Positions 48,226-63,453 of a stretch of 64,000 bases of DNA are shown piece by piece. The notes below the pieces were generated by a model. That model was not told where the DNA came from and ran no database searches. It worked only from the letters and a program-made list of their open reading frames with translations. How positions within the stretch are numbered: position 1 is the stretch's first letter; each line of letters opens with the position of its first letter. The DNA is from an uncultured Gammaproteobacteria bacterium (GTDB taxonomy: Bacteria; Pseudomonadota; Gammaproteobacteria; Steroidobacterales; Foliamicaceae). The position numbers and the translations under genes are program-made. Where the stretch lies: assembly GCA_964392625.1 (NCBI GenBank), contig CAYMQG010000080.1, forward strand, positions 13,335-77,334. Reading direction: 5' to 3'.

Positions 48226-49323
48226 TCAGGGCCAGTCGCGCGAAACGCTGACGAAGGACCCCCTGGACTGCGAGGCCATCAGCCAGTAGTAGCCGGTGGC
48301 GGCCGGATCCCCGTCCATCGGGTAGAACAGCACATTGACCGGAATCCCCGAGGGCAGATCGCGCACCGCGCGGGTAAAGAACCGTTCGCGCGCCCGCGTA
48401 TCCACCCATCCGACGCGCGAGGGAGGGCTGGCGCCCTGCGTCGGCAGTCCGTCGGTCAGCAGGTACACGTTGTCCGGCAACGGCTGCATCGCGCGTATCG
48501 CGCGCATCGCCGCATGCAGGCTGGTACCGCCCCTCGGCGCGAACTCGCGCAAGGCCTCGATCGCTTCGGTCACCCGCGCACCGTCGGCGACGCTGAGCCA
48601 CTCCCCGTCCGTGCCCTCAAGAATGCTCCTGTGTTCCACCCCGAAGATATAGACCTGAAAACGCTGCTGCGGCTCCAGGCGCGTGGTGATCCAGTCGACC
48701 GAATTCACGACCTGGACCCACTTCGGGGCGCGGGGTTTGAGTTCCTCTTCCATCAGGCGAAAGCGCAACACGTCGATATAGGTGCGCCCCAGCATGCTTG
48801 CGGACGCATCCACGAGGATCATTACCCGGTCGCCGCCCATCTGCATGCCGGTCAGGTATTGCCGCGCGCCCTCGCCCTCGAAACCGCGCACGCGCTGCCC
48901 CGCTCCTTCCTCCGCCTCGGCGACCCGCGCCTCAAGTTCCTGCTGCATTTCCCTGAGCCGGTCCACGTCGGCCCGCAGCTTCTCTACCGACTCCTGGCTC
49001 TGCGTCCCCAGGCGCTCGTATTCCGCCAGTTCGGCCAGCAACGCGGCAAGCCGTTCGCGCAGCTTTCTCAGCTCCTCGATGGCCGTTGCGCGGCGCTCGT
49101 CGAGCGTATCGCGCTCACCCCGCAACTGCAGCAGGTCCTTTCGCCCCTCCAGGACCTCCTCTTCGAGGCGCGTGGACTCGCTGAGCAGATCGATACGCTC
49201 GGCGTCCGCCCGCAAGCGCACCTGGGCGTTGATGATCACGAAGAACAGCACGACCGCGCCGAAGCCGCAGGAAATGATGTCCAGAAACGACATGCTGAAT
49301 ACGTGAAAGCGCCTACGAGCCAT
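48226..49323 (-). CDS. ExbD/TolR/MotB-like TM(Asp) - coiled coil - von Willebrand factor A (vWA) protein
   Basis: The N-terminus MARRRFHVFSMSFLDIISCGFGAVVLFFVI has a basic cytoplasmic tip and an Asp at the start of the single TM, as in ExbD, TolR and MotB. About 110-120 aa of heptad-rich charged helix follow. The vWA domain has an intact MIDAS (VMILVDASAS ... GGTSL ... VYLLTDG). The start overlaps the upstream gene by 11 nt. Confidence 0.75.
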   Translation of the reverse strand: MARRRFHVFSMSFLDIISCGFGAVVLFFVIINAQVRLRADAERIDLLSESTRLEEEVLEGRKDLLQLRGERDTLDERRATAIEELRKLRERLAALLAELAEYERLGTQSQESVEKLRADVDRLREMQQELEARVAEAEEGAGQRVRGFEGEGARQYLTGMQMGGDRVMILVDASASMLGRTYIDVLRFRLMEEELKPRAPKWVQVVNSVDWITTRLEPQQRFQVYIFGVEHRSILEGTDGEWLSVADGARVTEAIEALREFAPRGGTSLHAAMRAIRAMQPLPDNVYLLTDGLPTQGASPPSRVGWVDTRARERFFTRAVRDLPSGIPVNVLFYPMDGDPAATGYYWLMASQSRGSFVSVSRDWP

Positions 49324-50725
49324 CGCCGCCCACCTCGCGCGTGATCAGGAACTCCAGCGGCCCCACGCCCACCACGTCCCCCCCGCGCAATGGCGCCGAA
49401 TCCGCCACCGGCGCGCCATTCAGGTTGGTTCCGTAACGGCTGTGGTCATGCAAAACCGCCTGTCCATTCTCCAGCACCACGGTGCAGTGGTGTCGTGAAA
49501 TTCCACCTTCCGGCGAGAGCACGATCGACAGGCCCCCGGACTGCGGAGACGAGCCGAGATGCAGGCCTTCAGCGCCTATCCGCCAGGCCCGGCCGCCGAA
49601 CACGACGTGCGTCGGCGTCCGTTCTCCCCCTTCCCCGTCGCCGCCGGCAGGCGGCGCAACTCCATCCGGCCGGGAAATTCGCCCCGTGTCCGGCCCGCCG
49701 GGCAAGTCGAGGGCCGGCAAGGACGTAAGCAGCACATAGCGATCCCTCGCTCCCGACGCAGGACCGAAACGCTCCAGCGCGCCCAGCGCCGCGGCGCCCG
49801 CCGGCAGGACCTGGACCTCGGCGGCGAGCAGGCGAGCGAACACGTCGGCGCAGCCGGGAACCTCGGCGAGGACCCCCGACAGGTATATGTCCGCTGCCTC
49901 GGGGCCCGTGCACCACGATCGCATGCGATTCCCCGCCCCCCCCAACAGCCGCTCGACCGAGACAAGAAAGTCATCGCGGCTCAGGATCGCAGTGGCGGTT
50001 ACGGGCGCCGCTTCAAGTTGGGCCCTGAGCTCGCCGCCGGTCAGGACAGCCTGAAGCCATGAGTCCAATCGGTCGGCCAGTTCCTGTTCGGTGGCGGGCA
50101 GATCCAATGGATCAAAACGGGAACCCGCCACGAACCGGCCGGCAACGTAGCCGGTCATGGCCGCTCGGAGGTGACGCAGTCCCGGGCGGCCGTCGTACAG
50201 AATCTCCTCGCGCCGGATTCGGCCGTCGCGCGGCATGAGCCGGGAAACCGCCAAACGCTCGGGGGTAGCTTCAATGTGCAGGCAGGCGCGGCCCGCCGCC
50301 GCGCCCCGCACCGCGGCCACCCCGCTTTCGACCAGCCCGGCCACCGGCAGCCCGGCTTCCTCGGCGATGCCCAGCAGCAGTGCAAGGCGGTCTTCCGCAA
50401 CGCCCGGCGGAATGACCAGCACCACACCGCTTATGTCTCCCACGGATTGCCGAAAGCGCTCCCACAGCCCCTGCATTTGCCCGTGGGCCAGGTCGGCATA
50501 GCTGCGATATCCCCGCGCCGGCCTGGGCAGGGGCTCATCCGACAGCATTTCCCAGTAATTGCGGTAACTGCGCGCGGGGTCGCGCCGCGCCTCTTCGGCC
50601 GCTTCCCGTCCGAACGCCACCCGGCGCTTTTGCACCAGCGCCACGCCCGGCTCGTTGAACAGCACTCCGGCGGCGGTAGCGCCTACCAGCGCCGCTCCAT
50701 TGACTTCCAGCGCGACCAGCGCCAT
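49313..50725 (-). CDS. Hsp70/actin-fold (degenerate ATPase motifs) protein with C-terminal FHA domain
   Basis: The N-terminal roughly 340 aa align by eye to the DnaK NBD (VVLVIPPGVAEDRLALLLGIAEEAGLPVAGLVESGVAAV vs [37 protein letters not shown]), but the phosphate-1/2 motifs are lost. The C-terminal FHA reads GGISRHHCTVVLENGQAVLHDHSRYGTNLNGAPV...GDVVGVG. No signal peptide. Confidence 0.7.
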   Translation of the reverse strand: MALVALEVNGAALVGATAAGVLFNEPGVALVQKRRVAFGREAAEEARRDPARSYRNYWEMLSDEPLPRPARGYRSYADLAHGQMQGLWERFRQSVGDISGVVLVIPPGVAEDRLALLLGIAEEAGLPVAGLVESGVAAVRGAAAGRACLHIEATPERLAVSRLMPRDGRIRREEILYDGRPGLRHLRAAMTGYVAGRFVAGSRFDPLDLPATEQELADRLDSWLQAVLTGGELRAQLEAAPVTATAILSRDDFLVSVERLLGGAGNRMRSWCTGPEAADIYLSGVLAEVPGCADVFARLLAAEVQVLPAGAAALGALERFGPASGARDRYVLLTSLPALDLPGGPDTGRISRPDGVAPPAGGDGEGGERTPTHVVFGGRAWRIGAEGLHLGSSPQSGGLSIVLSPEGGISRHHCTVVLENGQAVLHDHSRYGTNLNGAPVADSAPLRGGDVVGVGPLEFLITREVGGDGS

Positions 50726-50741: not shown

Positions 50742-51539
50742 TCAGTCGCCCTGCAGGCGGCGGATCAGCCGTTCGTCGCAGTAATCCGAGGTCTCGAAGA
50801 CCAGTCGCTCCTGCAACAACTGAAGCTGGTGGACCAGGAACATGATGAAAATGCTGACCAGCAGGGCAAAGAAGGTGGAATTGAAGGCCACGCCGAGGCT
50901 CTCGGTAACGCCGCTGATGTCGCCTTCCACGGCCCGATAGGCAAGCGTCAGCGCCTGGCCGATCCCGCGCACGGTGCCGATAAAGCCGATCGAGGGGATC
51001 GCCCAGGCGATGTATCGGATCATCGACAGTTCGGATTCCAGTCGCTCGGCTTCGGCGTTGACCAGCGTCTGTGTAGCCGAAGAGACGTCCTGCACATTGC
51101 CCGTGGCGCCGAAGCGCTGCAGCGCGCTGAGCAATACGCGCGGCAACAGCAGGCGTTGCTGCGATTCGGGCAGCGCACGCAATTGGCGCGCGTGCTCGCG
51201 CGTGTCCTCGGGCAGTATGCGCACGCCTTCCGCCAACGGCAGCAGATCGCGCTGCAGCAGCGAGCGCTCGCGCAGCGCCCCACGCGCCTTGTAGCCCATG
51301 ATCGCCAGCGCCCAGAGCGCCAGGATCAGGCAGGCCTCCTGCTCGAAGTCGCGCACGATCACGTACAGCGAGCGTTCGGGCACGTACTCGGCGTCCTGTT
51401 CCAGCAGTATCCGCTGCTCTTCCATGACCGCGTTGGCCTGCGGTCGGATCCAGGCCACGTACATCGCATGCACCAGGATCACCGACAGGAACAGCGAAAA
51501 AAGCTGAAAAACGAATTCGACCGGTAACTGTCTTCTCAT
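50742..51539 (-). CDS. MotA/TolQ/ExbB proton-channel family protein
   Basis: 265 aa. Two N-terminal TMs, a cytoplasmic insert, then the family core IRYIAWAIPSIGFIGTVRGIGQAL ... GVAFNSTFFALLVSIFIMFLVHQL (conserved Pro-x-x-G-x-x-GT and the last TM). Confidence 0.8.
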   Translation of the reverse strand: MRRQLPVEFVFQLFSLFLSVILVHAMYVAWIRPQANAVMEEQRILLEQDAEYVPERSLYVIVRDFEQEACLILALWALAIMGYKARGALRERSLLQRDLLPLAEGVRILPEDTREHARQLRALPESQQRLLLPRVLLSALQRFGATGNVQDVSSATQTLVNAEAERLESELSMIRYIAWAIPSIGFIGTVRGIGQALTLAYRAVEGDISGVTESLGVAFNSTFFALLVSIFIMFLVHQLQLLQERLVFETSDYCDERLIRRLQGD

Positions 51540-51546
51540 CGATTGC

Positions 51547-52065
51547 TCACTGGTGTCGCGGGGGGCGGGGCGTCAGGACACGCCGAAGATATGCGCTGCC
51601 CTCGTCCCAGCCCTTCGTGTGCGGCGACTCGGGAAACTCCAGCTCGGCCACCGCGCAGGTAGGGAACTTTCCGTAGAGCACCGCGAAAGCCTCCTCTTCG
51701 CCTTGGCCGGCCAGGTACAGCGCCAGTTCCTGCAGGGCGGGATTATGGCCCACCACCATGATGTCGCCGGTGCCCTCCGGCAGTGCGTGCAGGCACTGCA
51801 GCACGGTTCCCGGACTGAAGGTGTACAGCCGTCGCATGACCTCGATGCTGAGGTCGGCGGGAAGGCTGGGCAGGACACCGCACAGCGTCTCCACCGCCCT
51901 GCGTCCGGCGGAACACAGGATTCTCTCGGGGGCGCATCCCACGGCCGCCAGTTTCTCTCCCATCGCGGGCGCATTCTTCCGGCCCCTGGGGGCCAGCGCC
52001 CGGTCGAAATCGTCGGCGGAATACGGCCCCGCCTTGGCATGACGCAACAGCCACAGGCGCTTCAT
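51547..52065 (-). CDS. sixA: SixA-type histidine-phosphatase-superfamily protein
   Basis: MKRLWLLRHAKA (RHG/RHA catalytic motif) ... MVVGHNPAL. 172 aa from the ATG at 52065. The stop lies only 7 nt before the MotA-like start. The 1026-aa track ORF containing it is otherwise antisense to ppk. Confidence 0.8.
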   Translation of the reverse strand: MKRLWLLRHAKAGPYSADDFDRALAPRGRKNAPAMGEKLAAVGCAPERILCSAGRRAVETLCGVLPSLPADLSIEVMRRLYTFSPGTVLQCLHALPEGTGDIMVVGHNPALQELALYLAGQGEEEAFAVLYGKFPTCAVAELEFPESPHTKGWDEGSAYLRRVLTPRPPRHQ

Positions 52066-52167
52066 GACGGAACGAGGGGGGCGCGCCCTCCTCTCCAGGA
52101 ATTGCTCATAACTCCTGTATGCTACTCCGATCATGGGGCACATTCCACGCCATCCCGGAACACGCAA

Positions 52168-54375
52168 ATGACGCCCGCGTCCGCCAAGCCGCGAGCGTTG
52201 AGCGAGGTGGAACGCGTCGCCGGCCGCCTGATCAACCGCGAGCTGTCCTGGCTGGAATTCAACACGCGGGTGCTGGAGGAAGCCGGCAACGAAAACCACC
52301 CGCTGCTGGAGCGCGTGCGGTTTCTGTCCATCTCCGCCAGCAACCTCGACGAGTTCTACATGGTGCGCGCGGCCGGGCTCATGGCCCAGGTGGCGGCAGG
52401 CGTCACAAAGACCAGTGCCGACGGGCTGACCCCCGGCGAACAGCTCGAAGCCATACGCGAACAGGTAAAGAGGCTTCTCAAGGCCCAGTCCGGGCGCAGC
52501 GCGCAGTTGCTGGCCGAATGCCGCGAGGCCGGGGTGGCGGTGGTAAAGCCCGAGGAACTGGGCAAGCAGGCCCGTGAGTGGCTGTCGCGATGGTTCGAGA
52601 ACCAGTTGTTTCCGGTGCTGACTCCCCAGGCGGTCGATACGGCGCACCCCTTCCCCTTCATTCAGACCGGCTGCCTGGTGTACGTGCTGCGGCTGATGCG
52701 GCCCGCGGACAAGCACGAGATCAACGGCCTGGTCCTTGTCCCCCCGCAGATCGAGCGGTTCGTGCGTGTTCCCGGCAAGGCCCTGCGCTTCGTCGCCGTC
52801 GAGGAAATCATCGCCCGCAACTTCAGGCTGCTGTTCCCCGGAATGAAGATCCTGGGCCACGGCATCTTCCGCATCAGCCGCGACAGCGACCTTGAAATCG
52901 ACGAAGAAGCCGAGGACCTGGTACGGACCTTCGAGACCGCCCTGCTGCGGCGCCGCAGAGGCAACGTCATACGGGTGGAAGTGGCGGCCGGCATGCCGAA
53001 GAACTTCCGCCGGTTCGTTCTCAAGGCGTTCAACGCCTCGCACGCGCATGTCTTCAACATCGACGGCATGCTGGGGCTGGCGGACATCAAGCAGATCATC
53101 ACGGACCAGCGCCGCGACCTGCAGCACGAGCCGCTCAACGTGCGCTTCCCCGAACGGGTACGCGAGTATGGAGGCGACATTCTCGCCGCCATACGCGCCA
53201 AGGACTTCGTCGTGCAGCATCCGTACGAGAGCTTCGACGTGGTCGTGCAGTTCCTGCGCCGCGCCACCGACGACCCGGCGGTCGTGGCCATCAAGCAGAC
53301 CCTTTACCGCACTTCCGAGGACTCGCCGATCGTCGAGGCGCTGATCGCCGCCGCCGAGGCCGGCAAGCTGGTCACCGCCATGGTCGAGCTTCGGGCGCGT
53401 TTCGACGAAGCGGCGAACATCCGCTGGGCGCAGGAGATGGAGCGCGCCGGCGTGCAGGTCGTCTACGGCTTCATGGAACTCAAGACCCACGCCAAGGTAT
53501 CGCTGGTGGTGCGCAGGGAAGCGGGCGAATTGCGGACCTATACGCACTTCGGCACCGGCAACTACCATCCGGTCAACGCGCGCGTCTATTCGGACCTGAG
53601 CTTCTTTACCTGCGACGCGGCCCTGGGGCGCGACACCGCGCGCCTGTTCAATTACATGACAGGCTACGCGACGCCCGAGGACATGGAAAAGCTGGTTTAC
53701 GCGCCGGCTCAGATGAAAAGCAGCCTGGTCGAGTTGATCGAGGAGGAAGTCGTCCATGCCCGCGCCGGGCGTCCGGCGGAGATCTGGGCCAAGCTCAACT
53801 CGCTCGTGGACCCCGAGATCATCGACTGTCTCTACCGGGCGAGCCAGGCCGGGGTGCGGATCGAACTCTACGTCCGGGGGATTTGCTGCCTGCGCCCGGG
53901 CGTACCCGGCATGTCTGAGAACATCCAGGTGCGCAGCATGGTCGGCAGGTTCCTGGAGCACTCGCGCGTCATGTGTTTCGGCGCCGGCCACCAGCTTCCT
54001 TCCACAGAGAGCAAGGTTTACGTATCGTCCGCCGACTGGATGCCCCGCAACCTGCATCATCGCGTGGAGACACTGGTGCCGATCGAGAACGAGACGGTCA
54101 AGCGGCAGCTCGTGGAGCAGGTCCTGATGGCGAACCGCTTCGACGTGATGCAGAGCTGGCAACTCGGACCCGACGGCGCTTACCGCCGCCTTGACCATCA
54201 ATCGGGCGATTTCAGCGCCCACACCTGGTTCATGACCAATCCGAGCCTTTCCGGCCGCGGCAGCGCCCTGCGGGAGTCGCGTCCGGCCATGCCCGGCGAA
54301 CTGTTTCCCGAGACCGGGGGGCCCACCGCCGCGGAAGACGAACCCCGCCCGACACTGGTCAAAGCCGCCGTCTGA
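52168..54375 (+). CDS. ppk: Polyphosphate kinase 1
   Basis: INRELSWLEFNTRVLEEA...PLLERVRFLSISASNLDEFYMVR, the autophosphorylated-His region ELKTHAKVSLVVRRE, and two PLD-like HKD-type C-terminal domains. ATG at 52168. The upstream 205 codons of the track ORF are rejected. Confidence 0.95.
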   Translation: MTPASAKPRALSEVERVAGRLINRELSWLEFNTRVLEEAGNENHPLLERVRFLSISASNLDEFYMVRAAGLMAQVAAGVTKTSADGLTPGEQLEAIREQVKRLLKAQSGRSAQLLAECREAGVAVVKPEELGKQAREWLSRWFENQLFPVLTPQAVDTAHPFPFIQTGCLVYVLRLMRPADKHEINGLVLVPPQIERFVRVPGKALRFVAVEEIIARNFRLLFPGMKILGHGIFRISRDSDLEIDEEAEDLVRTFETALLRRRRGNVIRVEVAAGMPKNFRRFVLKAFNASHAHVFNIDGMLGLADIKQIITDQRRDLQHEPLNVRFPERVREYGGDILAAIRAKDFVVQHPYESFDVVVQFLRRATDDPAVVAIKQTLYRTSEDSPIVEALIAAAEAGKLVTAMVELRARFDEAANIRWAQEMERAGVQVVYGFMELKTHAKVSLVVRREAGELRTYTHFGTGNYHPVNARVYSDLSFFTCDAALGRDTARLFNYMTGYATPEDMEKLVYAPAQMKSSLVELIEEEVVHARAGRPAEIWAKLNSLVDPEIIDCLYRASQAGVRIELYVRGICCLRPGVPGMSENIQVRSMVGRFLEHSRVMCFGAGHQLPSTESKVYVSSADWMPRNLHHRVETLVPIENETVKRQLVEQVLMANRFDVMQSWQLGPDGAYRRLDHQSGDFSAHTWFMTNPSLSGRGSALRESRPAMPGELFPETGGPTAAEDEPRPTLVKAAV

Positions 54376-54381
54376 CAGCCA

Positions 54382-55875
54382 GTGCCGGGCGTATTGCGAA
54401 CCAGCCCCGCGACCCCAAGCGAGGCGCCGGTAGCCGTGATCGACATAGGCTCGAACTCCGTTCGCCTGGTCGTCTACGAAAACGGCGGGCGGGCGCCCCT
54501 GCCGATATTCAACGAAAAGGTCCTGTGCGGGCTCGGCCGCGGGCTGGACCGGACCGGCAGAATGCCCGGGGACGGTATCCGCCTGGCCCTGGAGAGCCTC
54601 CACCGGTTCGCCCGCCTGTGCCCGCAAATGGGCGTTCTTGAAGTGCAGGCGGTCGCGACCGCGGCGGTCCGGGAGGCGAGTAACGGGCCGGAGTTCCTCG
54701 ATACCGTGCGCTCCGAATGCGGCCTGGATGTCCGCTTGTTGACGGGCAACCGGGAAGCCGAGGTGTCTGCCGGCGGAGTCCTGAGCGCAATTCCCCGGGC
54801 GAGCGGCGTTGCGGCCGACCTGGGCGGCGCCAGCCTGGAACTGACGCTCCTGGACAACGGGAGTGTGGCGGAGCGCGTTTCACTGCCGCTGGGCACGGTG
54901 CGCGGAAACGGCGAGGTGTCCATCGGGGAAAGCCGGGAGACCATTCGGGGCCAGCTTGACGGGTTGGACTGGCTGCCGCGGGCGCGCGGACAGTCCCTGT
55001 ACCTGGTAGGAGGCTCCTGGCGGGCATTGGCCCGAATCCACATGGACGAATCCGGCTACCCGCTGCATGTCATACATCACTACGCGCTGGAGGCCGCCGA
55101 CGCTTCGGAATTCTGCGGGATGCTGGCCGACTGGCCCCGCACGCGCCTGGAATCGGCCAAGGGACTGCGGGCCGACCGGCTGGAGTCCCTGCCCTTTGCG
55201 GCGGTCGCCCTGCAATCCGTGCTGGAGCGCAGCGGCGCCGAGCGGGTCGTGTTTTCCGCCAACGGCCTGCGCGAAGGCTGCCTGTACGAAGCCCTGACGC
55301 CGCTTGAACAGCAGATAGATCCCCTGCTGTGGCTGTGCGAGAGCGCTGCCCGGCGCATGGGCCGCGGGGGCTCGGGCGGCGACCTTCTGGCCGGGTGGAT
55401 CGCGCCGGCGCTGGAAGGACTGGTGCCTGACAAGCTCAGGCTGGCTGCCTGCCACCTGTCCGACATCGGCTGGTCCGAACATCCCGACTACCGGGCCGAG
55501 CAGGTATTCCTGCGCATATTGCGCATGCCGCTGACCGGCGCCGATCACCGCGAACGAATCATGCTCGGCCTGGCCGTCGCATCGCGCCACGCCGCCATCA
55601 CCCCGACACTGAAGCGCCTGGGCCTCGGCACGCTCGTCGACAAGAAAGAGAAGCGCCAGGCAGTCTGTATCGGCCTGGCCATGAGGCTTGCCTACACGAT
55701 TTCCGGCGGGGCCGTCAGCGTCCTTGAGCAATTCCGCCTGCAGCGGAAACCGGAAGAACTCGTGCTGACGGCGCCGGAAGGCGCCCACATCCTGGTCGGG
55801 AACACGGTCCAGCGCCGCTTGCGCGTCCTGGCGGAAAGGCTCGACCTCGACTATCGGATCCGTCTGCGCGCCTGA
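54382..55875 (+). CDS. ppx: Exopolyphosphatase (Ppx/GppA family)
   Basis: VAVIDIGSNSVRLVVYE, DLGGASLELT and LVGGSWRALAR motifs of the ASKHA-fold Ppx/GppA. GTG start 6 nt after the ppk stop. Confidence 0.92.
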   Translation: MPGVLRTSPATPSEAPVAVIDIGSNSVRLVVYENGGRAPLPIFNEKVLCGLGRGLDRTGRMPGDGIRLALESLHRFARLCPQMGVLEVQAVATAAVREASNGPEFLDTVRSECGLDVRLLTGNREAEVSAGGVLSAIPRASGVAADLGGASLELTLLDNGSVAERVSLPLGTVRGNGEVSIGESRETIRGQLDGLDWLPRARGQSLYLVGGSWRALARIHMDESGYPLHVIHHYALEAADASEFCGMLADWPRTRLESAKGLRADRLESLPFAAVALQSVLERSGAERVVFSANGLREGCLYEALTPLEQQIDPLLWLCESAARRMGRGGSGGDLLAGWIAPALEGLVPDKLRLAACHLSDIGWSEHPDYRAEQVFLRILRMPLTGADHRERIMLGLAVASRHAAITPTLKRLGLGTLVDKKEKRQAVCIGLAMRLAYTISGGAVSVLEQFRLQRKPEELVLTAPEGAHILVGNTVQRRLRVLAERLDLDYRIRLRA

Positions 55876-55887
55876 CGGTACGGCGCG

Positions 55888-56259
55888 CTAAATATCGGTT
55901 GGCCACACTACCGGGTTGTCGGCCGACAGGGGCTCCGAAGGCGTGAACTCCTCCAGCACCTCATCGCTGCCCAGCGCCTCCTCGATGCGGGCCAGGTCTT
56001 CCTCGATCGAGGTCACCTCCGTGGACAGCTCTTCCTCCACGGGAGATCCGTCTTCTCCCCGGGCCGGCGCATCGGCCGGAGTTGCATTGGAGGGCGGGAT
56101 GCTCTCCCGCCCAGCGGGCACGCCCTCGTTGTCGGGCGCCGCGTCCTCTGCGGTCCTGTCCTGCTGCGCGAGCCCCAGCCATCCGCCCACACGTTCGGCG
56201 GCCCAGGTCAGGCCAACGGCCAGGCCGATAACGGCGACAACTGCGACGACCTTCTTCAT
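55888..56259 (-). CDS. Small N-terminally anchored/secreted acidic protein (hypothetical)
   Basis: MKKVVAVVAVIGLAVGLTWAA followed by a Pro/Asp/Glu-rich tail (…EEELSTEVTSIEEDLARIEEALGSDEVLEEF…). The ATG at 56259 forms an ATGA overlap with the stop of the FGE-domain gene. Confidence 0.6.
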   Translation of the reverse strand: MKKVVAVVAVIGLAVGLTWAAERVGGWLGLAQQDRTAEDAAPDNEGVPAGRESIPPSNATPADAPARGEDGSPVEEELSTEVTSIEEDLARIEEALGSDEVLEEFTPSEPLSADNPVVWPTDI

Positions 56260-58676
56260 TCGGGTTCCTGCAACTCGGCGTAGCGCGCCAGGCGAAATCC
56301 TACATCGAGCCTCTCCTCCTCGCCAAAATCGCGGAACGCCCAGCGCAGTTCGCGCAGCGTCCCGTGCAGCCAGCCCGAACCGCGGATCACGTAAAAACGC
56401 CCCTCCTGCGGACCGCGCGGGTCCACCTCGAAGCCGGGATAAAGCGTATCGGTGCCGTAGTAATCGCCCGTCCACTCGGCCACGTTGCCGCCAAGATCGT
56501 AGAAGCCCAGCGGGTTGGCCGGAAACGAACCGACCGGGGCCGTGAAGGGAAAGAAGTCGTTGTAGGCGCTCAGCACGTTGGTGACGAGGCTGCCGGCCGA
56601 CTGGTCCGCGTAGTTGCCGGAGCGTGCCGGAGGAGGCATGCGCTCACCCCAGGGATAGCGCGAATTCCCCGCGCCGCCCCGGTAGCGGGCCGCCCAGACC
56701 CACTCCGCCTCGGTCGGCAGGCGATAGCCGGTCCCCGGCTCGGTCACCGGAATCAGCCGGCCGGAACGGCTCTGATACTGAAGCGGCAGGTTTTCCTGCG
56801 AACTCAGCCAGTTGCAGAAGGCCGCGGCGGCCTGCCAATCGACGTTCACCGCGGGGCTGCTGTCGGCCGCCAACGAACGGAAGCGCTCGGCCCCGGAGGT
56901 GTGGTTGGGAATGAAAGCGCGAAATTCCCGGTTGGTGACTTCCTTGACGCCCAGGTAGTAGCGTTTCGTGAGCCTCACCCTGCGGCGCACCTCGTTGTTG
57001 CGCCATCCCTGCGAACCGCGCTGCGATCCCATCTCGAACTCGCCGGGGAACAGCATGACCATTGACGCTCCCTGCGACGTTTCGATTTCCGTGGGCTGGG
57101 CGGCCAGCATCTGCTGCCGCGGCGTCAGGAGTTCCACTTCCACCTCCTGCGGATAGGCGGGCTGCGGAACGACCTCGCGCGACTGCGCCACGTAGCCTTC
57201 CAGGCTGAATTCGAGCTGTTGCTCGGTTGAAGGCAATTGAAGGTCCAGCGGGGTCCGACCGGCTGGCTGTCCGTTGACGCTGACCTGCGCTCCGGACGGA
57301 CGGCTCAACAGGCGAATGGTACCCAGACGCGGCTCGAGACGAATGGTCAGGGACTGCTCGGCGCCCCGACCCAGCGTCACCGTGCGTTCCTGCGACTCGT
57401 AGCCCGCCCGGGCCACCACCACGCGGTGCGCCCGGTCCGGGCTCACCTCCACGGTCGCAGGCGATCCTCCGCGAAAGTCCCCGTCCACGGTAATGCTGGC
57501 GCCCGGCGGGTCCGTCCGCACGCGAAGCACGCCTGCGGCAGGTTGCAGGCGGATGACGGGCAGGACCTGCGGCGAGCCGGCAACCACGGTCAGCCGTTCG
57601 CGATGCGTGGCGAATCCCGGCCTGGAGAACGACAGCATGCGTTCGCCGGACAGCAATTCCACGGTTGCCGGAGTTGTTCCCAGGACCTGTCCTTCCGATC
57701 GCAATTCAGCCCCCGGCGGATCGCTGCTGGCGAGGACCTCCGCCCAGTCCGGCTCCAGTTCGGCTCTGAACGGCTCCAGGTCGCCGCCGCCCTCCACGGC
57801 CAGCGCAATGCTCAGGTCCTTGTAGCGGAGCGCGCTTACGCTCAGGGCGTAAGTGCCCGGGCTCAGCGAGATTTCCTCGCCGGGGGAAAACACCTGGTCC
57901 ACGCCCTCGATACGAATCTCCGCGCCGGCCACGGCATCCACGACCACCCGTCCGGGCAAAAGCCGCATCGCGAAGCGAAATTCCTGACTGCCTTCGCCCC
58001 CCACCTCGATCTCTTCGTCCAGCGGGTAATAACGTTCCCGTTCAGCCCTGACCCGGTACCGGCCTTTCCAGAGAAGATAGCGGGACCCCACGTGCGGAGT
58101 GGGCAGCAGCGCGTCAACCTCAACGGCAACGTCGGCGGGCTCCACTTCAATCAGCACGCCTTCCGCGGTAAACACGAAGACGGCGCTGACGCCCAGCAGC
58201 GCCAGCAGCACGCCTGCCGCCAGGCGCAACCACAGGCGGCCCTTGTGCGCCGGCACGGAGCGCGAATCTCCGGCAGGCCGGCGAACCGCTATTTCGGCCG
58301 TGGCGTCTTCGTCGTCGGCCAGTTCGGGCGGCCTCGTGTCCCAGGCCTGCGCCAGGTAGCTCACATTCAGGCGCATAGCTTCGGGCGAAAGCGAGTCCAC
58401 CGTTACCTCCGCTCCGGCAATGGCGAGCCGATCGCCTTCCTCCAGCCACTGTGCGCCGCTGATCGGCTCGCCGTTCAGCAGAAGGCCGGAAATGCCCGGA
58501 TAGCACTGCACCAGGGCCCGGTCGTCGAGGAGATTGATGCTGGCCGCCGGAGGCGCGCCGGCCGGGCCGGGGAGGCGAATATGCGCGCCCGCGCCGCTGC
58601 CCAGCAGCACGGGCAGCTTGTCCGCCGCGAGCGTGCGCTCGCCCTCGGGCAGCACGAGAACCACATCACGCGCCAT
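56256..58676 (-). CDS. FHA-like N-terminal domain - TM - multiple PEGA domains - C-terminal FGE/SUMF1 (formylglycine-generating-enzyme-like) domain protein
   Basis: 806 aa. The N-terminal roughly 100 aa are beta-rich and FHA-like (LLNGEPISGAQWLEEGDRLAIAGAEVTV), but the canonical SRxH is not evident. TM is LWLRLAAGVLLALLGVSAVFVF. Repeated PEGA-type units are present (e.g. LRVRTDPPGASITVDGDFRGGSPATVEV). The C-terminus carries FGE-sulfatase motifs (YRLPTEAEWVWAAR, GNVAEWTGDYY, RGSGW). Confidence 0.8.
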   Translation of the reverse strand: MARDVVLVLPEGERTLAADKLPVLLGSGAGAHIRLPGPAGAPPAASINLLDDRALVQCYPGISGLLLNGEPISGAQWLEEGDRLAIAGAEVTVDSLSPEAMRLNVSYLAQAWDTRPPELADDEDATAEIAVRRPAGDSRSVPAHKGRLWLRLAAGVLLALLGVSAVFVFTAEGVLIEVEPADVAVEVDALLPTPHVGSRYLLWKGRYRVRAERERYYPLDEEIEVGGEGSQEFRFAMRLLPGRVVVDAVAGAEIRIEGVDQVFSPGEEISLSPGTYALSVSALRYKDLSIALAVEGGGDLEPFRAELEPDWAEVLASSDPPGAELRSEGQVLGTTPATVELLSGERMLSFSRPGFATHRERLTVVAGSPQVLPVIRLQPAAGVLRVRTDPPGASITVDGDFRGGSPATVEVSPDRAHRVVVARAGYESQERTVTLGRGAEQSLTIRLEPRLGTIRLLSRPSGAQVSVNGQPAGRTPLDLQLPSTEQQLEFSLEGYVAQSREVVPQPAYPQEVEVELLTPRQQMLAAQPTEIETSQGASMVMLFPGEFEMGSQRGSQGWRNNEVRRRVRLTKRYYLGVKEVTNREFRAFIPNHTSGAERFRSLAADSSPAVNVDWQAAAAFCNWLSSQENLPLQYQSRSGRLIPVTEPGTGYRLPTEAEWVWAARYRGGAGNSRYPWGERMPPPARSGNYADQSAGSLVTNVLSAYNDFFPFTAPVGSFPANPLGFYDLGGNVAEWTGDYYGTDTLYPGFEVDPRGPQEGRFYVIRGSGWLHGTLRELRWAFRDFGEEERLDVGFRLARYAELQEPE

Positions 58677-58693: not shown

Positions 58694-61006
58694 TCAGATG
58701 GGATCCGTGCAGACCAGAACCAACGGCTCCGGCAGTCCTTCCGGCTCCACGACGAACTCGCGGCGCACGTCACGAAAGCCGTCACGGGTCCCGACGGCGG
58801 TGTAGGCGCCGGGGCGTAGCTCAAGCATGCGACTGTCGAAACTTCCCAGGCGGCCAACGTGAAAAATGGTCACTTCGGTGAGACCGTCGGAACGCAGCCA
58901 CACCGGCGCCGGCGTGGCTGCCACCGCCAGGGCCTGCTCGAGGCGGCCGATCTGCCCGTTAAGGCGCGCGCCCGGACCGGGAATGGCCGCGGCTTCGTCC
59001 AGCAGCCGTTTGCCGCGCTGCCAGGCATCGTCCCGGTTCAACGTCCGGGCGTTCGCGATGGTGGTTTCCAATGCATCGTCCAGCCGCGCACGCCCCTCGG
59101 CCTCCGCCAGCCCGCGTTGCGCTGCGACGATGTTCGAGTCGATCTCAAGCATGCCGCGGTAATTGGCGGCCGCCCTGGGCCAGTCTTCCGCGAACCTGCC
59201 CGCCATCGCGGCCGCCTGGAACTGCGCCAGCCGCTGCCCGCGTTCCTCCAGTTCCAGCGCGGCAAGCGCTTCGACCGGCCCGGGATCGTTCGGACGCTGT
59301 TTCCGTGCGGCCTCGAACGCAGTCCGGGCCGCTTCGACATCGCCCTCTCCCAGCGCCGCATGACCGCGCGACATTCGCGAGTTGAACAGTTGCTGATCGA
59401 TCCGGGCATTGACCGTCGACAACTCCCTGCGGGCGGACTGCCGTTCCGGGTCGACCTTGAGCACCGCCTGCCAGGCGGCCCGCTGCTCCTCCAGGCTGCC
59501 TTCCCGCGCGCTGGCCCGCGCTTCGGCCACGGCCTGCATGGTTTCCGGCAGCCGGGCGGCCCGGCGGGACGCGGACTGCACCTCCGGATCGCTCGCTCCG
59601 AGAAGAATGCCGGCCTTTTCGAGTTCCGCCAGAGCACCGGCCTGATCGCCCGATTCGATAGCCTGCAGGGCTTCTTCCAGGGCCCCGCGGCCAATATCGG
59701 GAGCCTCTTCCCGCAGTTGGCGCAGCATCTCCGCCGCCTTTCCGTATGCGCCCTGCGCGTCCGGATATTCGCGCCTGCGATAGAAATCGTCCCCTTTCCG
59801 CTCCTCGGCCATGGCCTGCTCCCAGGCCCCGCCCGACCACATGGAGGGCTGCAGGGCCGCCAGGTAATTTCGGTCCTGCAGCATATCGCCCATGGCCTCA
59901 TCGGCCGCCTCGCGCTGCATTCTCAGCAGCTGCATGTCCTGGCGGGGCGCCTCGGCCTCCTGGATGATGCGTTCGGGCGGAGGACGCCTGCTTGCGCGTT
60001 CTTCCGCGAAGCGCGGCGCCGCGAAAAACAGGACCGCGGCCGCCGCCAGCAGGAGTCCGCCCAATGCATAAGCCACCCACAGCGGCACGCCGGAACTGCG
60101 TTGCAACGCCGGCGGCGCACCGCCGGGGTCGCCGGCGCCGGCTCGAGCTCGCGCGACAATGGCGGCGGCCTGTGACGGGCCTTCGGCGGTGGCGGATTCT
60201 GCCAGTATCTCTTCCAGGGCTGCACGCACGGCCGCCATGGTCACCGGCCTCAGGGCTTCGTCCCGCGCGAGCATCGCGGTAACCAGTTCGGCCAGCTCAT
60301 CGGGAAGCTGCGGCCGCCCTTCGGGGGCGGCGGGAGCTGCCAGCTCCGTGCTGCGAATGGCCTCTTCGCTGATGTCCGGCGCGAATGGCGGATAGCCGCA
60401 CAACAACTCGTAGATGACGCAACCCAGCCCATACACGTCGTCGCTGGTCCGGGCGGAGCGGCCCTCAAGCCGTTGCGGGCTCATATAGGCCAGCGAGCCT
60501 CCGGGACGCCGGACACGCCCGTCGTCGGCATCCGGCAGCACTGCGGCGCCGAAGTCCGTCAGGCAGGCGGCGCCCGACTCGTCCAGCAAAATGTTCTGCG
60601 GCTTGATGTCGCCATGCACCACGCCTTTGCGGTGCGCGTACGCCAGGGCGTCGCAAACCGGCAGCAGGCGCCTCGCGGCGTCGTTCCAGGGTTCGCCGGA
60701 CCGCTCTCCTACATGACCGCCCGGCAGGACGGGCATGGTGAAGAAATGGCTGTTGCCGTCGGAAACGAACTCCTCCGGGCGCACGACGGCCGGATGGACC
60801 AGCGACTGGGCAACGGAGAACTCGCGCCGGAAGCGGTCGATACGCGCCGGATGCCGGGCATATTCATCCGCCAGCAACTTCAGGGCCACTTCACGGCCTT
60901 CCCGCATATCTTCCGCAAGCCACACCTCGCCCAGCCCGCCGGAGCCCAGCGGGCGGACCAGGCGGAACCGATCCGCCAGCATCTCGCCTTGCCTTTTTTG
61001 GGTCAT
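58694..61006 (-). CDS. Transmembrane Hanks-type Ser/Thr protein kinase with periplasmic TPR-like region and C-terminal PEGA-like domain
   Basis: Gly-loop LGSGGLGEVW, VALK lysine, catalytic HGDIKPQNILL, DFG, and activation segment ...YMSPQRL. TM is LWVAYALGGLLLAAAAVLFFAAP. A long helical-repeat ectodomain follows. The C-terminus is EVTIFHVGRLGSFDSRMLELRPGAYTAVGTRDGFRDV. Confidence 0.88.
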   Translation of the reverse strand: MTQKRQGEMLADRFRLVRPLGSGGLGEVWLAEDMREGREVALKLLADEYARHPARIDRFRREFSVAQSLVHPAVVRPEEFVSDGNSHFFTMPVLPGGHVGERSGEPWNDAARRLLPVCDALAYAHRKGVVHGDIKPQNILLDESGAACLTDFGAAVLPDADDGRVRRPGGSLAYMSPQRLEGRSARTSDDVYGLGCVIYELLCGYPPFAPDISEEAIRSTELAAPAAPEGRPQLPDELAELVTAMLARDEALRPVTMAAVRAALEEILAESATAEGPSQAAAIVARARAGAGDPGGAPPALQRSSGVPLWVAYALGGLLLAAAAVLFFAAPRFAEERASRRPPPERIIQEAEAPRQDMQLLRMQREAADEAMGDMLQDRNYLAALQPSMWSGGAWEQAMAEERKGDDFYRRREYPDAQGAYGKAAEMLRQLREEAPDIGRGALEEALQAIESGDQAGALAELEKAGILLGASDPEVQSASRRAARLPETMQAVAEARASAREGSLEEQRAAWQAVLKVDPERQSARRELSTVNARIDQQLFNSRMSRGHAALGEGDVEAARTAFEAARKQRPNDPGPVEALAALELEERGQRLAQFQAAAMAGRFAEDWPRAAANYRGMLEIDSNIVAAQRGLAEAEGRARLDDALETTIANARTLNRDDAWQRGKRLLDEAAAIPGPGARLNGQIGRLEQALAVAATPAPVWLRSDGLTEVTIFHVGRLGSFDSRMLELRPGAYTAVGTRDGFRDVRREFVVEPEGLPEPLVLVCTDPI

Positions 61007-61084: not shown

Positions 61085-62314
61085 TCAGGGGCGCGACAGG
61101 GACGTGCCCTCAGGCTCTTGCGCACCCGGCGTTTCAAGGTCGCCGGTCTCGCGGGCGTAGATGTCCCGCAACAGGCGGCGCCATTCACGAAACCTCTCCT
61201 CGGCGGATCCGGTCAAACGGCGGGTCTGACCTTCGAGCTCCACCACCATGGGCTCGGCCTCGGCATCGAAGGATTCGCCCACTTCGCGCAGCGCCTCGGC
61301 GTGCATCCTGGCTTCCTCGCGCCGCCCCAGGCTTCCCTGAATTCCCATGAAGCCCCCCTGGATCATGGTGCCTGTCACGCCCATGTTGTCGCCGCCGCTG
61401 GCTTCGTACGCGACAGCGCCCAGAATCCCGAGGACTCCGAGCAGCATGCGCGTATTCGCCGACCTGCGCATTTCCTCGTAACTCAGGCGGCCTTCCCGGG
61501 CCATCCGCCGCCAGTCGGTGTAGGGCCGGTCCAGCCCGTAGTAGAGGTTGGCGTAATGCTCGTTGACGGCGTCTATCAACGCGTATTCCCGCTCCCGCAC
61601 CTCGCGCATGCGGGCGACCATGGGATCGTCGGCAGCCGGCAGGCGCCTGACCTCGTACTGCCCGTCGCCGGTCTCTTCCAGATAGCCGCTGAAAGCCTGC
61701 GGCACGAGGCTCTGCCCGTAGCGCAGGTCGCTGATCTCGCGCACGCGCTGCAAATCGCCGGGACTGAACTGCGCGCGCGCCTGCAGCAGGTCGTTGGCGA
61801 TCTGGTTATAGATGTTCTGGTAGGGATCCTGACCGGGGCCGGTGTTGCGAATGTATGCCTGCTCCGCAACCAGCATTTCATAGTTCTTTTCGAACCACTG
61901 GCGGCCGGACGAGTCCCAGGCGCCGACACGCAGCTGCGCGCTATAGCCGTCCGATTGGTTGATCCTGCCCGAAATCACGACATCCGCAACCGGACTGTAT
62001 TCGGGAAGGACGCTTACCGCTCCCCAATAGCCGGTAGTCTCAAGCGTGCTCTTGAGGTGGTACGGCATGTAGCGCGCTTCGGCGCGGCGAATCTCGGGAA
62101 AGATGAAGCGGTCGTTGAGTTCCTGATCGCTCGCCTCTTCGGGCAGCCCCGCATCAAACACCAGGATGCCGACGTTCAGCAGCGATTCCGATGCAATTTC
62201 GGTCTCCGCGCGCTGCAGCCCCACCTGGGTGTACTGGACCTCGCGCGCGGACGTGCAGGCGCCCAGCACAATGATGCAGGCGGCCAGACCGAGAGTCGTG
62301 ATCGACCGGTTCAT
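61085..62314 (-). CDS. Lipoprotein of unknown function with a C-proximal glycine-zipper segment
   Basis: The ATG at 62314 gives MNRSITTLGLAACIIVLGACTS (lipobox). The later segment LLGVLGILGAVAYEASGGDNMGVTGTMIQGGFMGIQG resembles glycine-zipper membrane hairpins. ATGA overlap with the upstream gene's stop. Confidence 0.65.
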   Translation of the reverse strand: MNRSITTLGLAACIIVLGACTSAREVQYTQVGLQRAETEIASESLLNVGILVFDAGLPEEASDQELNDRFIFPEIRRAEARYMPYHLKSTLETTGYWGAVSVLPEYSPVADVVISGRINQSDGYSAQLRVGAWDSSGRQWFEKNYEMLVAEQAYIRNTGPGQDPYQNIYNQIANDLLQARAQFSPGDLQRVREISDLRYGQSLVPQAFSGYLEETGDGQYEVRRLPAADDPMVARMREVREREYALIDAVNEHYANLYYGLDRPYTDWRRMAREGRLSYEEMRRSANTRMLLGVLGILGAVAYEASGGDNMGVTGTMIQGGFMGIQGSLGRREEARMHAEALREVGESFDAEAEPMVVELEGQTRRLTGSAEERFREWRRLLRDIYARETGDLETPGAQEPEGTSLSRP

Positions 62315-63453
62315 TTTGTTTTCAACCCCATGTGCTTGCGATATTCGTCCCACAATGCCTCGCGTATGCGGGGGTCTTCTTCCTGCTCCGCCGCTTCGCG
62401 AATCTGCCGCGCCACCTGGTCCTCCTTGCCGGTAACCTCCGCAATATCTTCCGGAATCTCGATCTTCGTCTCCGGCTGCTCGCCGGGCGAGCCGTCTTCC
62501 GTCGGCCCGCCTTCTCCTTCGCCTCCGCCGGAGCCGCCACCGCTTCCGGAACTGCTTCCGCCTGCGCTGCTGCCGTCCGATTCGCTGCCCGGGCTTTGGC
62601 CGTCACCGCCAAGACCCCCGCCGCTCGCGTTGGGGATAGTCACCATAGCCCCGCCGGAGCCGCCGGACTCGCCGATCATTCCGCCCGTGCCTCCGGAACC
62701 GGCGGCGGACCCCTGTCCGGCCGATGCCATGGCGCCACGCTCACGGGCAATTTCGCGGTCGTAACCCTCCATGGATTCACGCAGGATTCCCTCGAGGTCG
62801 CCACTGCCTTGTGTGCCGCCTGCACCTCCTCTGCCGCCGGGCTCGCTACCCTGCCCGCCTCCGAAGCCACCGCCGACTCCCGTGGAACCGGCCTGCTGAC
62901 CTCCGGAACCGCCCGGCCGGCCCGAAGGCCCGCCCGCCGAACCGCTGGCGCCTCCCATGGAACCCATGGAACCCTGGGCGCCGCCCTGCGATCCCATCGA
63001 GCCCATCGAACCTCGCGAACCGCCTGGTGTTCCCATGGAGCCACCCATGGAGCCCATCGAACCGCCGGCTGAACCCATCGAACCCCGCGATCCACCGGTT
63101 GAACCCATCGAGCCCATGGAACCGCCGGACGAGCCCATTGAGCCCCCCATCGAACCGCGAGAACCGCCGGAAGAGCCCATCGAACCGCCCATGGAGCCAC
63201 GCGAGCCCCCGGAGGAACCCATGGACCCTTGCGAACCGCCCATGGAACCCTGAGAACCGCCCATGGAGCCCTGCGAACCGCCCATGGAGCCCTGCGAGCC
63301 CCCGGAGGACCCCGAACTGCCGCTGGGCGAAGGCATCGAAACCGGGGGGCCGCCGGACGGCGAGGAAACGCCTCCGGTGGTCTGGCAATTCGCCAGAACC
63401 AGCACTGCGGAGAGCGCCATACAAAAGCCTGAAATACGCACTGTTGCTTTCAT
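62311..63453 (-). CDS. Lipoprotein with extreme Gly/Ser/Met-rich tandem repeats and a conserved-looking charged C-terminus
   Basis: The ATG at 63453 gives MKATVRISGFCMALSAVLVLANCQ (lipobox). Roughly 125 aa of (G-S-M-G / GGSQ / GGSR) repeats follow, then a second Gly/Ser/Asp-rich tract. The C-terminus is EDIAEVTGKEDQVARQIREAAEQEEDPRIREALWDEYRKHMG. Confidence 0.65.
   Translation of the reverse strand: MKATVRISGFCMALSAVLVLANCQTTGGVSSPSGGPPVSMPSPSGSSGSSGGSQGSMGGSQGSMGGSQGSMGGSQGSMGSSGGSRGSMGGSMGSSGGSRGSMGGSMGSSGGSMGSMGSTGGSRGSMGSAGGSMGSMGGSMGTPGGSRGSMGSMGSQGGAQGSMGSMGGASGSAGGPSGRPGGSGGQQAGSTGVGGGFGGGQGSEPGGRGGAGGTQGSGDLEGILRESMEGYDREIARERGAMASAGQGSAAGSGGTGGMIGESGGSGGAMVTIPNASGGGLGGDGQSPGSESDGSSAGGSSSGSGGGSGGGEGEGGPTEDGSPGEQPETKIEIPEDIAEVTGKEDQVARQIREAAEQEEDPRIREALWDEYRKHMGLKTK
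62947..63327. repeat. Imperfect in-frame tandem repeat (9-nt periodicity, higher-order 18-33 nt units) encoding the GSM-rich tract
   Basis: The plus strand shows reiterated cat(g/c)ga(a/g)cc(n) units, e.g. catggaacccatggaaccctgggcgccgccctgcgatcccatcgagcccatcgaacctcgcgaaccgcc... This generates spurious ORFs in several frames on both strands (62724..63485, 62846..63424, 62957..63253). Confidence 0.85.

Follow-up and report, generated by a model that had tools for sequence, protein, structure and literature searches.

An Hsp70-like/FHA protein encoded between two motor genes as a candidate phospho-regulated adaptor of a conserved envelope machine

Why does a protein that joins an Hsp70-like domain to an FHA domain lie between the two genes of a putative membrane motor? 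The question is raised by gene G, found in a 64,000-nt stretch of DNA from an uncultured Gammaproteobacteria bacterium (GCA_964392625.1, contig CAYMQG010000080.1, positions 13,335–77,334 of the forward strand; this whole stretch is called the window below). G belongs to a gene cluster whose members we designate Z, B, C, D, E, F, G, H, I, and J, among them the motor genes F and H and the Ser/Thr kinase gene C. An initial annotation had described G, by eye, as an Hsp70/actin-fold pseudo-ATPase fused to an FHA domain and as a plausible clutch or regulator of the motor. The analysis reported here confirms that observation and supports its interpretation. We consider it moderately probable that G is a phospho-regulated cytoplasmic adaptor or subunit of an envelope-spanning machine of about ten genes, with a TolQ-like motor, an Hsp70-like scaffold, and an FHA domain that reads the kinase.

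Results

Gene G Joins an Hsp70-Like Domain to an FHA Domain

The open reading frame (ORF) annotated as G holds up as a gene. It opens with ATG, encodes 470 residues, and has 70 full-length homologues at 28–90% identity in a search of 5.8 billion proteins; a profile of its N-terminal domain (N-domain), searched against 1.84 billion cluster representatives (clusters at 50% identity), retrieves 2145 of them at E ≤ 1e-3, of which 1117 reach E ≤ 1e-30. These homologues and profile matches argue against a chance ORF. The ATG lies 16 nt past the stop of gene F, and the final 11 nt of G overlap the start of gene H (49313–49323).

The N-domain represents a large, so far unannotated family for which neither Pfam nor NCBIfam has a model. 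Database entries for the members read simply "hypothetical" or "FHA domain-containing," and residues 1–340 of G match no Pfam, NCBIfam, or PADLOC model significantly, the best being EutJ, an actin-fold family (E = 0.11). Literature searches on the domain combination returned no description of the G protein, and an eLife 2020 paper on conflict systems does not cover it.

Structure comparison places this N-domain with Hsp70. An AlphaFold2 model of G, built from a 32-sequence alignment, has a mean predicted local distance difference test score (pLDDT) of 85.7, with only the linker (residues 341–368) disordered at values below 50. Against the PDB, its top 50 Foldseek matches are all nucleotide-binding domains (NBDs) of Hsp70, Hsp110, DnaK, or Ssz1 (E = 2.6e-14 to 2e-12; 12–17% identity), with TM-scores relative to the target of up to 0.74 (DnaK NBD, 6w6e_I). 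The match extends over residues 1–338, no unrelated fold appears among the 50, and the model keeps all four Hsp70 subdomains (IA, IB, IIA, and IIB), as expected of the ASKHA fold. The Hsp70/actin fold initially proposed for the first ~340 residues is thus what fold recognition returns.

Sequence profiles point the same way. A profile of residues 1–340 gave seven weak matches among PDB sequences, six of them Hsp70-family chains (Sse1, E = 0.03; Ssz1, E = 0.05). In these alignments, VVLVIPPG...AGLPVAGLVESGVAAV of G pairs with the VPxYF...AGL.V. region of Hsp70, LHIEAT with the DxG phosphate-2 strand, and LSGVLAEVPG with GGxTRxP. These are exactly the segments that had been named when the DnaK NBD motif order was read by eye, so that alignment was correct. 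A direct hhalign comparison of the N-domain profile with the single Escherichia coli DnaK sequence aligned only 24 residues (E = 0.27) and was not used; the DnaK equivalences given below were taken instead from MAFFT --add and HMMER alignments to Sse1 and Ssz1. We conclude that the G protein belongs to the Hsp70-like fold superfamily but is not an Hsp70 chaperone.

The same comparisons bear on whether G might polymerize like the actin homologues MreB, ParM, and FtsA and so position the machine, as opposed to being an adaptor of fixed stoichiometry. G does have the actin/ASKHA superfold, and a precedent exists in Myxococcus, where the TolQR-like Agl motors work together with MreB. However, MreB, ParM, and FtsA are all missing from the 50 best structural matches, which are Hsp70/Hsp110 throughout; the profile matches are to the Hsp70 family only; and G lacks the canonical nucleotide motifs behind the dynamics of actin-like polymers. 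We regard a polymerizing G as highly improbable.

The C-terminal domain is recognizable at the profile level. Pfam FHA (PF00498) matches residues 399–455 with E = 2.1e-9 (38.1 bits; cut-off 20.7), which bears out the FHA assignment made initially, and phmmer against PDB sequences recovers the FHA domains of Rv1747, TB39.8, Ki-67, and GarA (best E = 2.7e-4). The best FHA-containing NCBIfam match is TagH (E = 2e-6), confined to the FHA region and scoring 27.8 bits against a cut-off of 120. The SxxH motif reads S410-R411-H412-H413 and the S-x-N-G-T motif S429-R430-Y431-G432-T433. Among the residues of the phosphothreonine (pThr) pocket, the window protein keeps G391, S410, R411, H413, S429, G432, T433, and N436 and replaces two, the Arg by S392 and the Asn by Y431; in the alignment to PDB FHA domains, the Gly-Ser noted initially in place of the usual Gly-Arg is G391-S392.

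Conservation of these positions was assessed in 135 nonredundant members with a strong FHA match. G391 is present in 100%, S410 in 94%, R411 in 86%, H413 in 99%, D427 in 97%, S429 in 97%, G432 in 97%, and N436 in 94%; position 433 is T in 76% and S in 20%, and G449-D450 is kept. A P371-T372-H373 motif and C414 are specific to the family. Judged by these residues alone, pThr binding by the FHA domain of G is uncertain.

Many G homologues, FHA-bearing or not, end in a short acidic tail of the type D-G-[STA] (e.g., GDGS within residues 466–470 of the window protein, and the C termini of P0089, P0148, and P0179), which may be a conserved docking peptide.

The FHA Domain Covaries With the Kinase Domain

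The domain makeup of G varies among metagenome loci: the FHA domain is intact, matches weakly, is replaced by an FHA-sized tail without motifs, or is missing. In the last case, G is 337–362 residues long and ends normally, and the surrounding cluster is otherwise unchanged. The N-domain is present in all these variants; the FHA domain is not.

This variation tracks the kinase domain of C. We counted 70 loci in which G, C, and D are all complete. Where C has its kinase domain, the FHA domain is intact in 52 of 52 loci; among the 18 loci without it, the FHA domain is intact in three, weak in seven, a motif-less tail in seven, and absent in one. A looser count of loci gave a like pattern with a single exception, L073, whose G ORF is split. 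The kinase-less C proteins retain a short cytoplasmic tail followed by a transmembrane (TM) helix and the TPR region. Decay or loss of the FHA domain in 15 of 18 kinase-less loci, against its integrity in every locus with the kinase, identifies the Hsp70-like domain as the core part of G and the FHA domain as a kinase-dependent add-on.

On a neighbor-joining tree of the N-domain, most kinase-less loci belong to one of two groups, and in each group the FHA domain decays by degrees, from strong through weak to none. Parsimony assigns to that tree five changes for the kinase, four for the FHA domain of G, and six for the corresponding domain of D, two of which are probably ORF-calling artefacts. 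The sequence of events, in which loss of the kinase comes first and decay of the FHA motifs second, is what functional dependence would predict.

Gene D takes part in the same pattern. Its residues 1–105 (window 58350–58676) form an FHA-like domain that Pfam does not detect, but on whose relationship jackhmmer converges: the search arrives at the FHA domain of G and collected 126 G and 78 D ORFs. This domain has none of the pThr residues, and 11 of the 18 loci without the kinase domain have a D that lacks it. The kinase/FHA layer is gained or lost as a unit.

These data also frame a reading in which the FHA fold at the C terminus is purely structural, as in the cytoplasmic domain of the type III secretion protein YscD, and makes phospho-independent contacts while the kinase acts elsewhere. 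Across the family, the canonical Arg is missing, as is the Asn of S-x-N-G; Yop-YscD_cpl ranks second among the Pfam matches; the FHA-like domain of D does without pThr residues altogether; and kinase-less lineages retain a motif-less FHA-shaped domain, which suggests a role for the fold itself. Set against this, S-R-x-H, S429, T433, and N436 are conserved at 76–99% alongside the kinase domain and almost only there, and in two clades or more their decay follows loss of the kinase, as expected for pThr recognition. We therefore judge a purely structural FHA domain to be quite unlikely and favor one that reads the kinase.

A cytoplasmic peptide in D, and less clearly in C, has the form I-[ED]-P-V-x-[FY]-x-P and lies 15–25 residues before the membrane helix (e.g., L001, L062, and L141). 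The window D protein reads AEIAVRRPAG here (residues ~125–135; 58200–58300, minus strand), the aromatic residue having been lost in the window clade, the group of close relatives of the window locus. The peptide and the cleft of G degenerate together in this clade, which may reflect correlated degeneration of a binding pair in what is essentially one lineage.

The Canonical ATP Motifs Are Replaced Throughout the Family

When the DnaK NBD was added to the family alignment, E7 of G fell at DnaK D8, N9-G10-A11-A12 at G10-T11-T12-N13, E133 at E171, E152 at D194, T154-P155-E156-R157 at G196-G197-G198-T199, and G283-V284 at G341-G342. No residues of G align with DnaK segment 64–99, which includes the catalytic K70, and subdomain IB of G is shortened accordingly. 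The five ASKHA motifs occur in order, but at the signature positions G reads ALEVNGAA, LHIEATPER, and LSGVLAEVPG. The two replacements of phosphate motifs proposed initially, ALEVNGAAL for DLGTTNS and LHIEATPER for DLGGGTFD, were located at these same positions by the DnaK alignment and the profile.

These replacements extend beyond the window protein. In 250 nonredundant members (pairwise identity <80%), the Gly-rich loops are absent throughout, with consensus ELNDAG, LHLDxQLHR, and LSHRLAxLPG. The three catalytic or metal-site acids are nevertheless retained in kind: position 7 is E in 88% and D in 6%, position 133 D in 85% and E in 8%, and position 152 D in 83% and E in 16%. Polar residues line the cleft across the family (D10 93%, H150 84%, H156 85%, H208 84%, and R285 79%), and a further signature comprises W58 (99%), R203 (100%), D205 (99%), and P206 (99%), within R203-F-D-P-L, together with E213 (98%) and Q214 (97%). 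The window clade, at 59–90% identity to the window protein, departs from the family at D10G, H156E, H208D, and R285V/T/A.

Such conservation could mean that G is an active, noncanonical nucleotide- or metal-dependent enzyme or chaperone that assembles, remodels, or powers the complex, the FHA domain merely targeting it. Acids at the DnaK D8, E171, and D194 equivalents in 93–99% of members would fit this view, as would the conserved D10, H150, H156, and R285 and a four-subdomain fold that reaches a TM-score of 0.74 to the DnaK NBD. But every member lacks the Gly-rich loops that position the phosphates and adenosine in ASKHA ATPases, the K70 segment is deleted with shortening of subdomain IB, and the window clade replaces D10, H156, H208, and R285 while the protein stays conserved. 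Whatever role the site has elsewhere is thus dispensable in the window clade, and we think an active enzyme unlikely. Canonical ATPase chemistry is very unlikely on these residues, and ATP binding and hydrolysis are presumably absent from G. We take the cleft to remain under selection in most of the family, with the window protein as its most degenerate version.

G Lies Between a TolQ-Like Channel Gene and a Helix–vWA Gene

The initial annotation had placed G between two stator genes. That statement stands with a qualification. F, upstream, is MotA/TolQ/ExbB-like (Table 1); H, downstream, encodes no MotB but a TolR/ExbD-like helix followed by a coiled coil and a vWA domain. No Pfam match to ExbD or MotB was found in the operon. 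The cytoplasmic loop of F (residues ~85–172), with its RILPED motif, is highly conserved. The H protein begins MARRRFHVFSMSFLDIISCGFGAVVLFF, and its transpore helix reads FSMSFLD with D15; in H and I from distant lineages, the columns F13 L14 D15 and C19 G20 x G22 A23 (CGxGA) are invariant. Its vWA domain carries the metal ion-dependent adhesion site motif DxSxS as D172-x-S174-x-S176, all three invariant. The H model has a pLDDT of 79.9 and matches vWA structures in Foldseek with E = 5e-7.

Two other readings of this neighborhood were set aside. One of the vWA fold matches, 8s05, raised the idea that the FHA domain of G binds the vWA domain of H as in archaeal ArnA/ArnB; topology rejects it, because the basic N terminus and TolR-like helix of H put its vWA domain in the periplasm and G has neither signal peptide nor TM helix. 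A Zorya-like or defense function found no footing, as a PADLOC scan of F, G, and H returned coiled-coil noise and a marginal ZorA match (E = 0.017).

Table 1. Gene G, its domains, and neighboring genes in the window
Feature	Coordinates	Strand	Description	Basis
Gene G, whole	49313..50725	(-)	470 aa, ATG start; Hsp70-like NBD, disordered linker, and FHA domain
Gene G, residues 1–338	49712..50725	(-)	Hsp70-type nucleotide-binding-domain fold	Foldseek, profile, DnaK alignment
Gene G, residues 339–369	49619..49711	(-)	Pro/Gly/Asp-rich disordered linker; length varies among homologues	pLDDT, alignment gaps
Gene G, residues 370–463	49337..49618	(-)	FHA domain	Pfam, PDB matches, residue frequencies
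Gene H	48226..49323	(-)	TolR/ExbD-like transpore helix, ~135-residue helix, periplasmic vWA domain	Model, Foldseek; Pfam VWA_2/VWA_3 weak
Gene F	50742..51539	(-)	MotA/TolQ/ExbB-like four-helix membrane protein	Pfam MotA_ExbB E = 1e-14; NCBIfam TolQ, ExbB weak
sixA-like gene	51547-52065	(-)	Histidine-phosphatase superfamily	Pfam His_Phos_1 E = 7e-6
ppk and ppx	51553-55875	(+)	Inserted between E and F on the opposite strand
Gene E	55888..56259	(-)	Small secreted/anchored acidic protein ending WPTDI	Translation; syntenic small ORF elsewhere
Gene D	56256..58676	(-)	Degenerate FHA-like domain, TM helix, three PEGA, FGE-sulfatase fold	Pfam PEGA and FGE-sulfatase
Gene C	58694..61006	(-)	Ser/Thr kinase, TM helix, periplasmic TPR-like region, C-terminal beta domain	Pfam Pkinase E = 6.6e-40, synteny
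Gene B	61085..62314	(-)	Conserved lipoprotein, ~410–420 aa, lipobox LGAC	Alignment, synteny
Gene Z	62311..63453	(-)	Conserved lipoprotein	Translation, synteny

The Cluster Is Conserved Across Distant Lineages

About 160 loci were surveyed, 82 from genome assemblies and 80 from metagenomes. The gene order is B (lipoprotein), C, D, E (small protein), F, G, H, I (a paralogue of H), and J (lipoprotein). Among 163 loci, all those that extend far enough have F directly upstream of G and F, G, and H adjacent. Next to distant G homologues, the cluster is contiguous and includes the kinase gene C; for P0269, the same cluster was found on a frameshifted contig. A profile search from H and I gave 4618 matches, and all 120 matches listed are close orthologues. 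Nearly all carriers are uncultured; they come from Gammaproteobacteria, Steroidobacteraceae, Desulfobacterales, and Acidobacteriota. The cultured carrier Porticoccus hydrocarbonoclasticus is of the kinase-less type, and its protein, WP_036859665.1, is annotated "hypothetical protein."

The window holds counterparts of Z, B, C, D, and E, which in the window clade (loci L003–L015) are parted from F-G-H by three inserted genes. Genes I and J are missing from that clade; nearly all other loci extending past H carry both H and I. The kinase domain of C in the window keeps the Lys (VALK), HGD, and DFG motifs. The FGE-sulfatase-fold domain of D (residues 536–798) has the T9SS ring lipoprotein PorK/GldK as its best NCBIfam match (E = 7e-30), though it scores 105 bits where the cut-off is 350. 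The B protein is rich in invariant aromatic residues and has a Gly-rich hydrophobic stretch close to its C terminus; it gave no informative PDB, Pfam, or NCBIfam match, and neither B nor Z belongs to a recognizable family. Profile searches of the lipoproteins B and J against the PDB were likewise uninformative, the one match, 9ncf_S, being a repeated Ig-like hairpin of a phage protein.

ATGA start/stop overlaps occur between D and E (56256–56259) and between Z and B (62311–62314), alongside the 11-nt overlap of G and H; gene overlaps of this kind suggest translational coupling along the cluster.

The inserted genes are a sixA-like gene, ppk, and ppx. The sixA-like gene ends 8 nt upstream of the start of F on the same strand and occupies that position only in the window clade. 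It might be cotranscribed with F-G-H and supply a phosphatase for the kinase/FHA layer, or it might simply belong with ppk and ppx. As called, the 940-aa ppk ORF overlaps the sixA-like gene, and its Pfam N-domain begins at residue 227; the true ppk start is therefore probably near 52200.

Discussion

A Proposed Role for G

We propose that the machine is powered by the TolQ-like channel F and, paired with it, TolR-like helices bearing a periplasmic coiled coil and a vWA domain (H and, elsewhere, also I). The Hsp70-like domain of G would most likely be a scaffold for binding other proteins, not a canonical ATPase, with the RILPED cytoplasmic loop of F and the conserved juxtamembrane peptides of C and D as candidate docking sites. 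Kinase C, answering to its periplasmic TPR region, would make pThr sites that are read by the FHA domain of G. Signals arriving at the periplasmic TPR and PEGA/FGE domains could then recruit G to the motor, release it, or lock it in place, and this regulation of G would switch on or off the proton-driven pulling by periplasmic vWA heads on an envelope target. Within this scheme, pThr binding, the physical partner of G, the direction of regulation, and the machine's role in the envelope are what we infer.

Several observations weigh against such a regulated adaptor. The covariation of kinase and FHA domain rests on few independent events, in two main kinase-less clades; because the loci are not independent events, it amounts to a few co-losses rather than 70 observations. 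In the FHA domain, the canonical phosphate-binding Arg after G391 occurs in just 8% of the 135 members, the structural Asn of S-x-N-G is Y, H, or F, and the second-best Pfam match is to the YscD type (Yop-YscD_cpl, E = 8e-5), which does not bind pThr. The cleft of the Hsp70-like domain appears to be under selection, given acids at positions 7 (94%), 133 (93%), and 152 (99%) and the conserved polar residues, and may still bind a metal, nucleotide, or other ligand noncanonically. No phosphatase, PP2C included, is encoded in the conserved cluster. Finally, all loci were found by starting from G, so the survey covers those TolQ/TPH-vWA motors that come with it.

A more specific version of the proposal makes G the cytoplasmic output or brake of the motor: its Hsp70-like domain would sit at the cytoplasmic face of the TolQ-like pentamer or on its axle, while its FHA domain, only once the kinase has acted, would be tethered to phosphorylated sites of the static membrane proteins C and D, giving a phosphorylation-operated clutch that gates vWA pulling driven by the proton motive force. 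In this detailed form, we hold the proposal to be doubtful. If it were true, the system would be the first non-flagellar 5:2 motor with a dedicated cytoplasmic partner of known fold, and also the first 5:2 motor under Ser/Thr phosphorylation control. The 5:2 motors—Tol, Ton, Agl, the type IX secretion system (T9SS), and Zorya—are a fast-moving field, in which a dedicated cytoplasmic partner is best established for the flagellar stator (FliG).

For the adaptor reading more generally, the analysis supplies a parts list and a regulatory hypothesis for a newly proposed class of motor, in which G is apparently obligatory at the sampled loci. Porticoccus hydrocarbonoclasticus offers a culturable carrier for experiments.

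Relation to Known Systems

The motor genes fit a type described recently. TolQ-like proteins paired with TPH-vWA proteins were put forward as putative 5:2 force transducers from genomics and AlphaFold3 models (PMC12204202, Mol Biol Evol 2025), the 5:2 stoichiometry being a prediction of those models. F and H agree with that description: a tolQ-like gene without tolR or exbD, and a vWA gene with a TolR-like transpore helix and conserved Asp, in Proteobacteria. The vWA genes there usually come as heterologous pairs, whereas the window clade carries H only. The main text of that paper, as distinct from its supplements, mentions no Hsp70 and no kinase, and its sole "FHA" match is the unrelated name FhaC. 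To the motors as presented there, our analysis adds the partners G, C, D, B, Z, E, and J, and at loci found from G the Hsp70-fold protein is encoded between both motor genes.

The system as a whole combines known kinds of parts: an ASKHA scaffold, an FHA/Ser-Thr kinase switch, and a 5:2 motor. With Hsp70/DnaK, and especially the atypical Hsp110/Sse1 and Ssz1, G shares the four-subdomain fold, the order of the five ASKHA motifs, and acidic residues at the D8, E171, and D194 positions; matching sequence is found at connect-1 (VPxxxxxxQ...AG..V..hh.E/D..AA), adenosine (..h.G..xRhP), and connect-2 (EAVAxGAA). It differs from the chaperones DnaK, HscA, and HscC in having a disordered linker and FHA domain in place of a substrate-binding domain and interdomain linker. 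It also differs from Hsp70 in having no Gly-rich phosphate and adenosine loops and a shortened subdomain IB with no K70 equivalent. Pfam HSP70 and NCBIfam DnaK-type models do not match it, identity is merely 12–17%, and its genomic context is a membrane motor as opposed to DnaJ/GrpE.

The type VI secretion system (T6SS) likewise places an envelope machine under the control of a membrane Ser/Thr kinase with a periplasmic sensor and a cytoplasmic FHA scaffold, in a threonine-phosphorylation pathway made up of the kinase PpkA, the phosphatase PppA, and the FHA protein Fha1/TagH. The present loci differ in that T6SS genes are absent, the cluster has no PP2C phosphatase, and the FHA domain of G is C-terminal to an Hsp70-like domain. 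The T9SS/gliding core (PorL/GldL-PorM/GldM with the PorK/GldK ring) likewise unites a MotA/ExbB-type channel, a periplasm-spanning helical dimer, and a protein of FGE-sulfatase fold. Here, however, other T9SS genes are missing, the periplasmic head is a vWA domain, and D has PEGA repeats and a TM helix that anchors it in the inner membrane; with its score of 105 bits, far under the cut-off of 350, it is not a PorK orthologue.

The closest functional analogy lies with another group of envelope proteins. PilM of type IV pili, the cytoplasmic domain of GspL/EpsL of the type II secretion system, and FtsA are cytoplasmic proteins of ASKHA fold, some of them without catalytic activity, and these adaptors bind short peptides on the cytoplasmic side of bitopic inner-membrane proteins that carry a periplasmic coiled coil and globular domain (PilN/PilO). 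G stands apart from the PilM/FtsA branch in being structurally closer to Hsp70 and in having a TolQ-like channel and TolR-like helices as neighbors. As with them, its gene immediately precedes those for two bitopic proteins, the paralogues H and I, and by analogy it would work most like the PilM, GspL, and FtsA adaptors.

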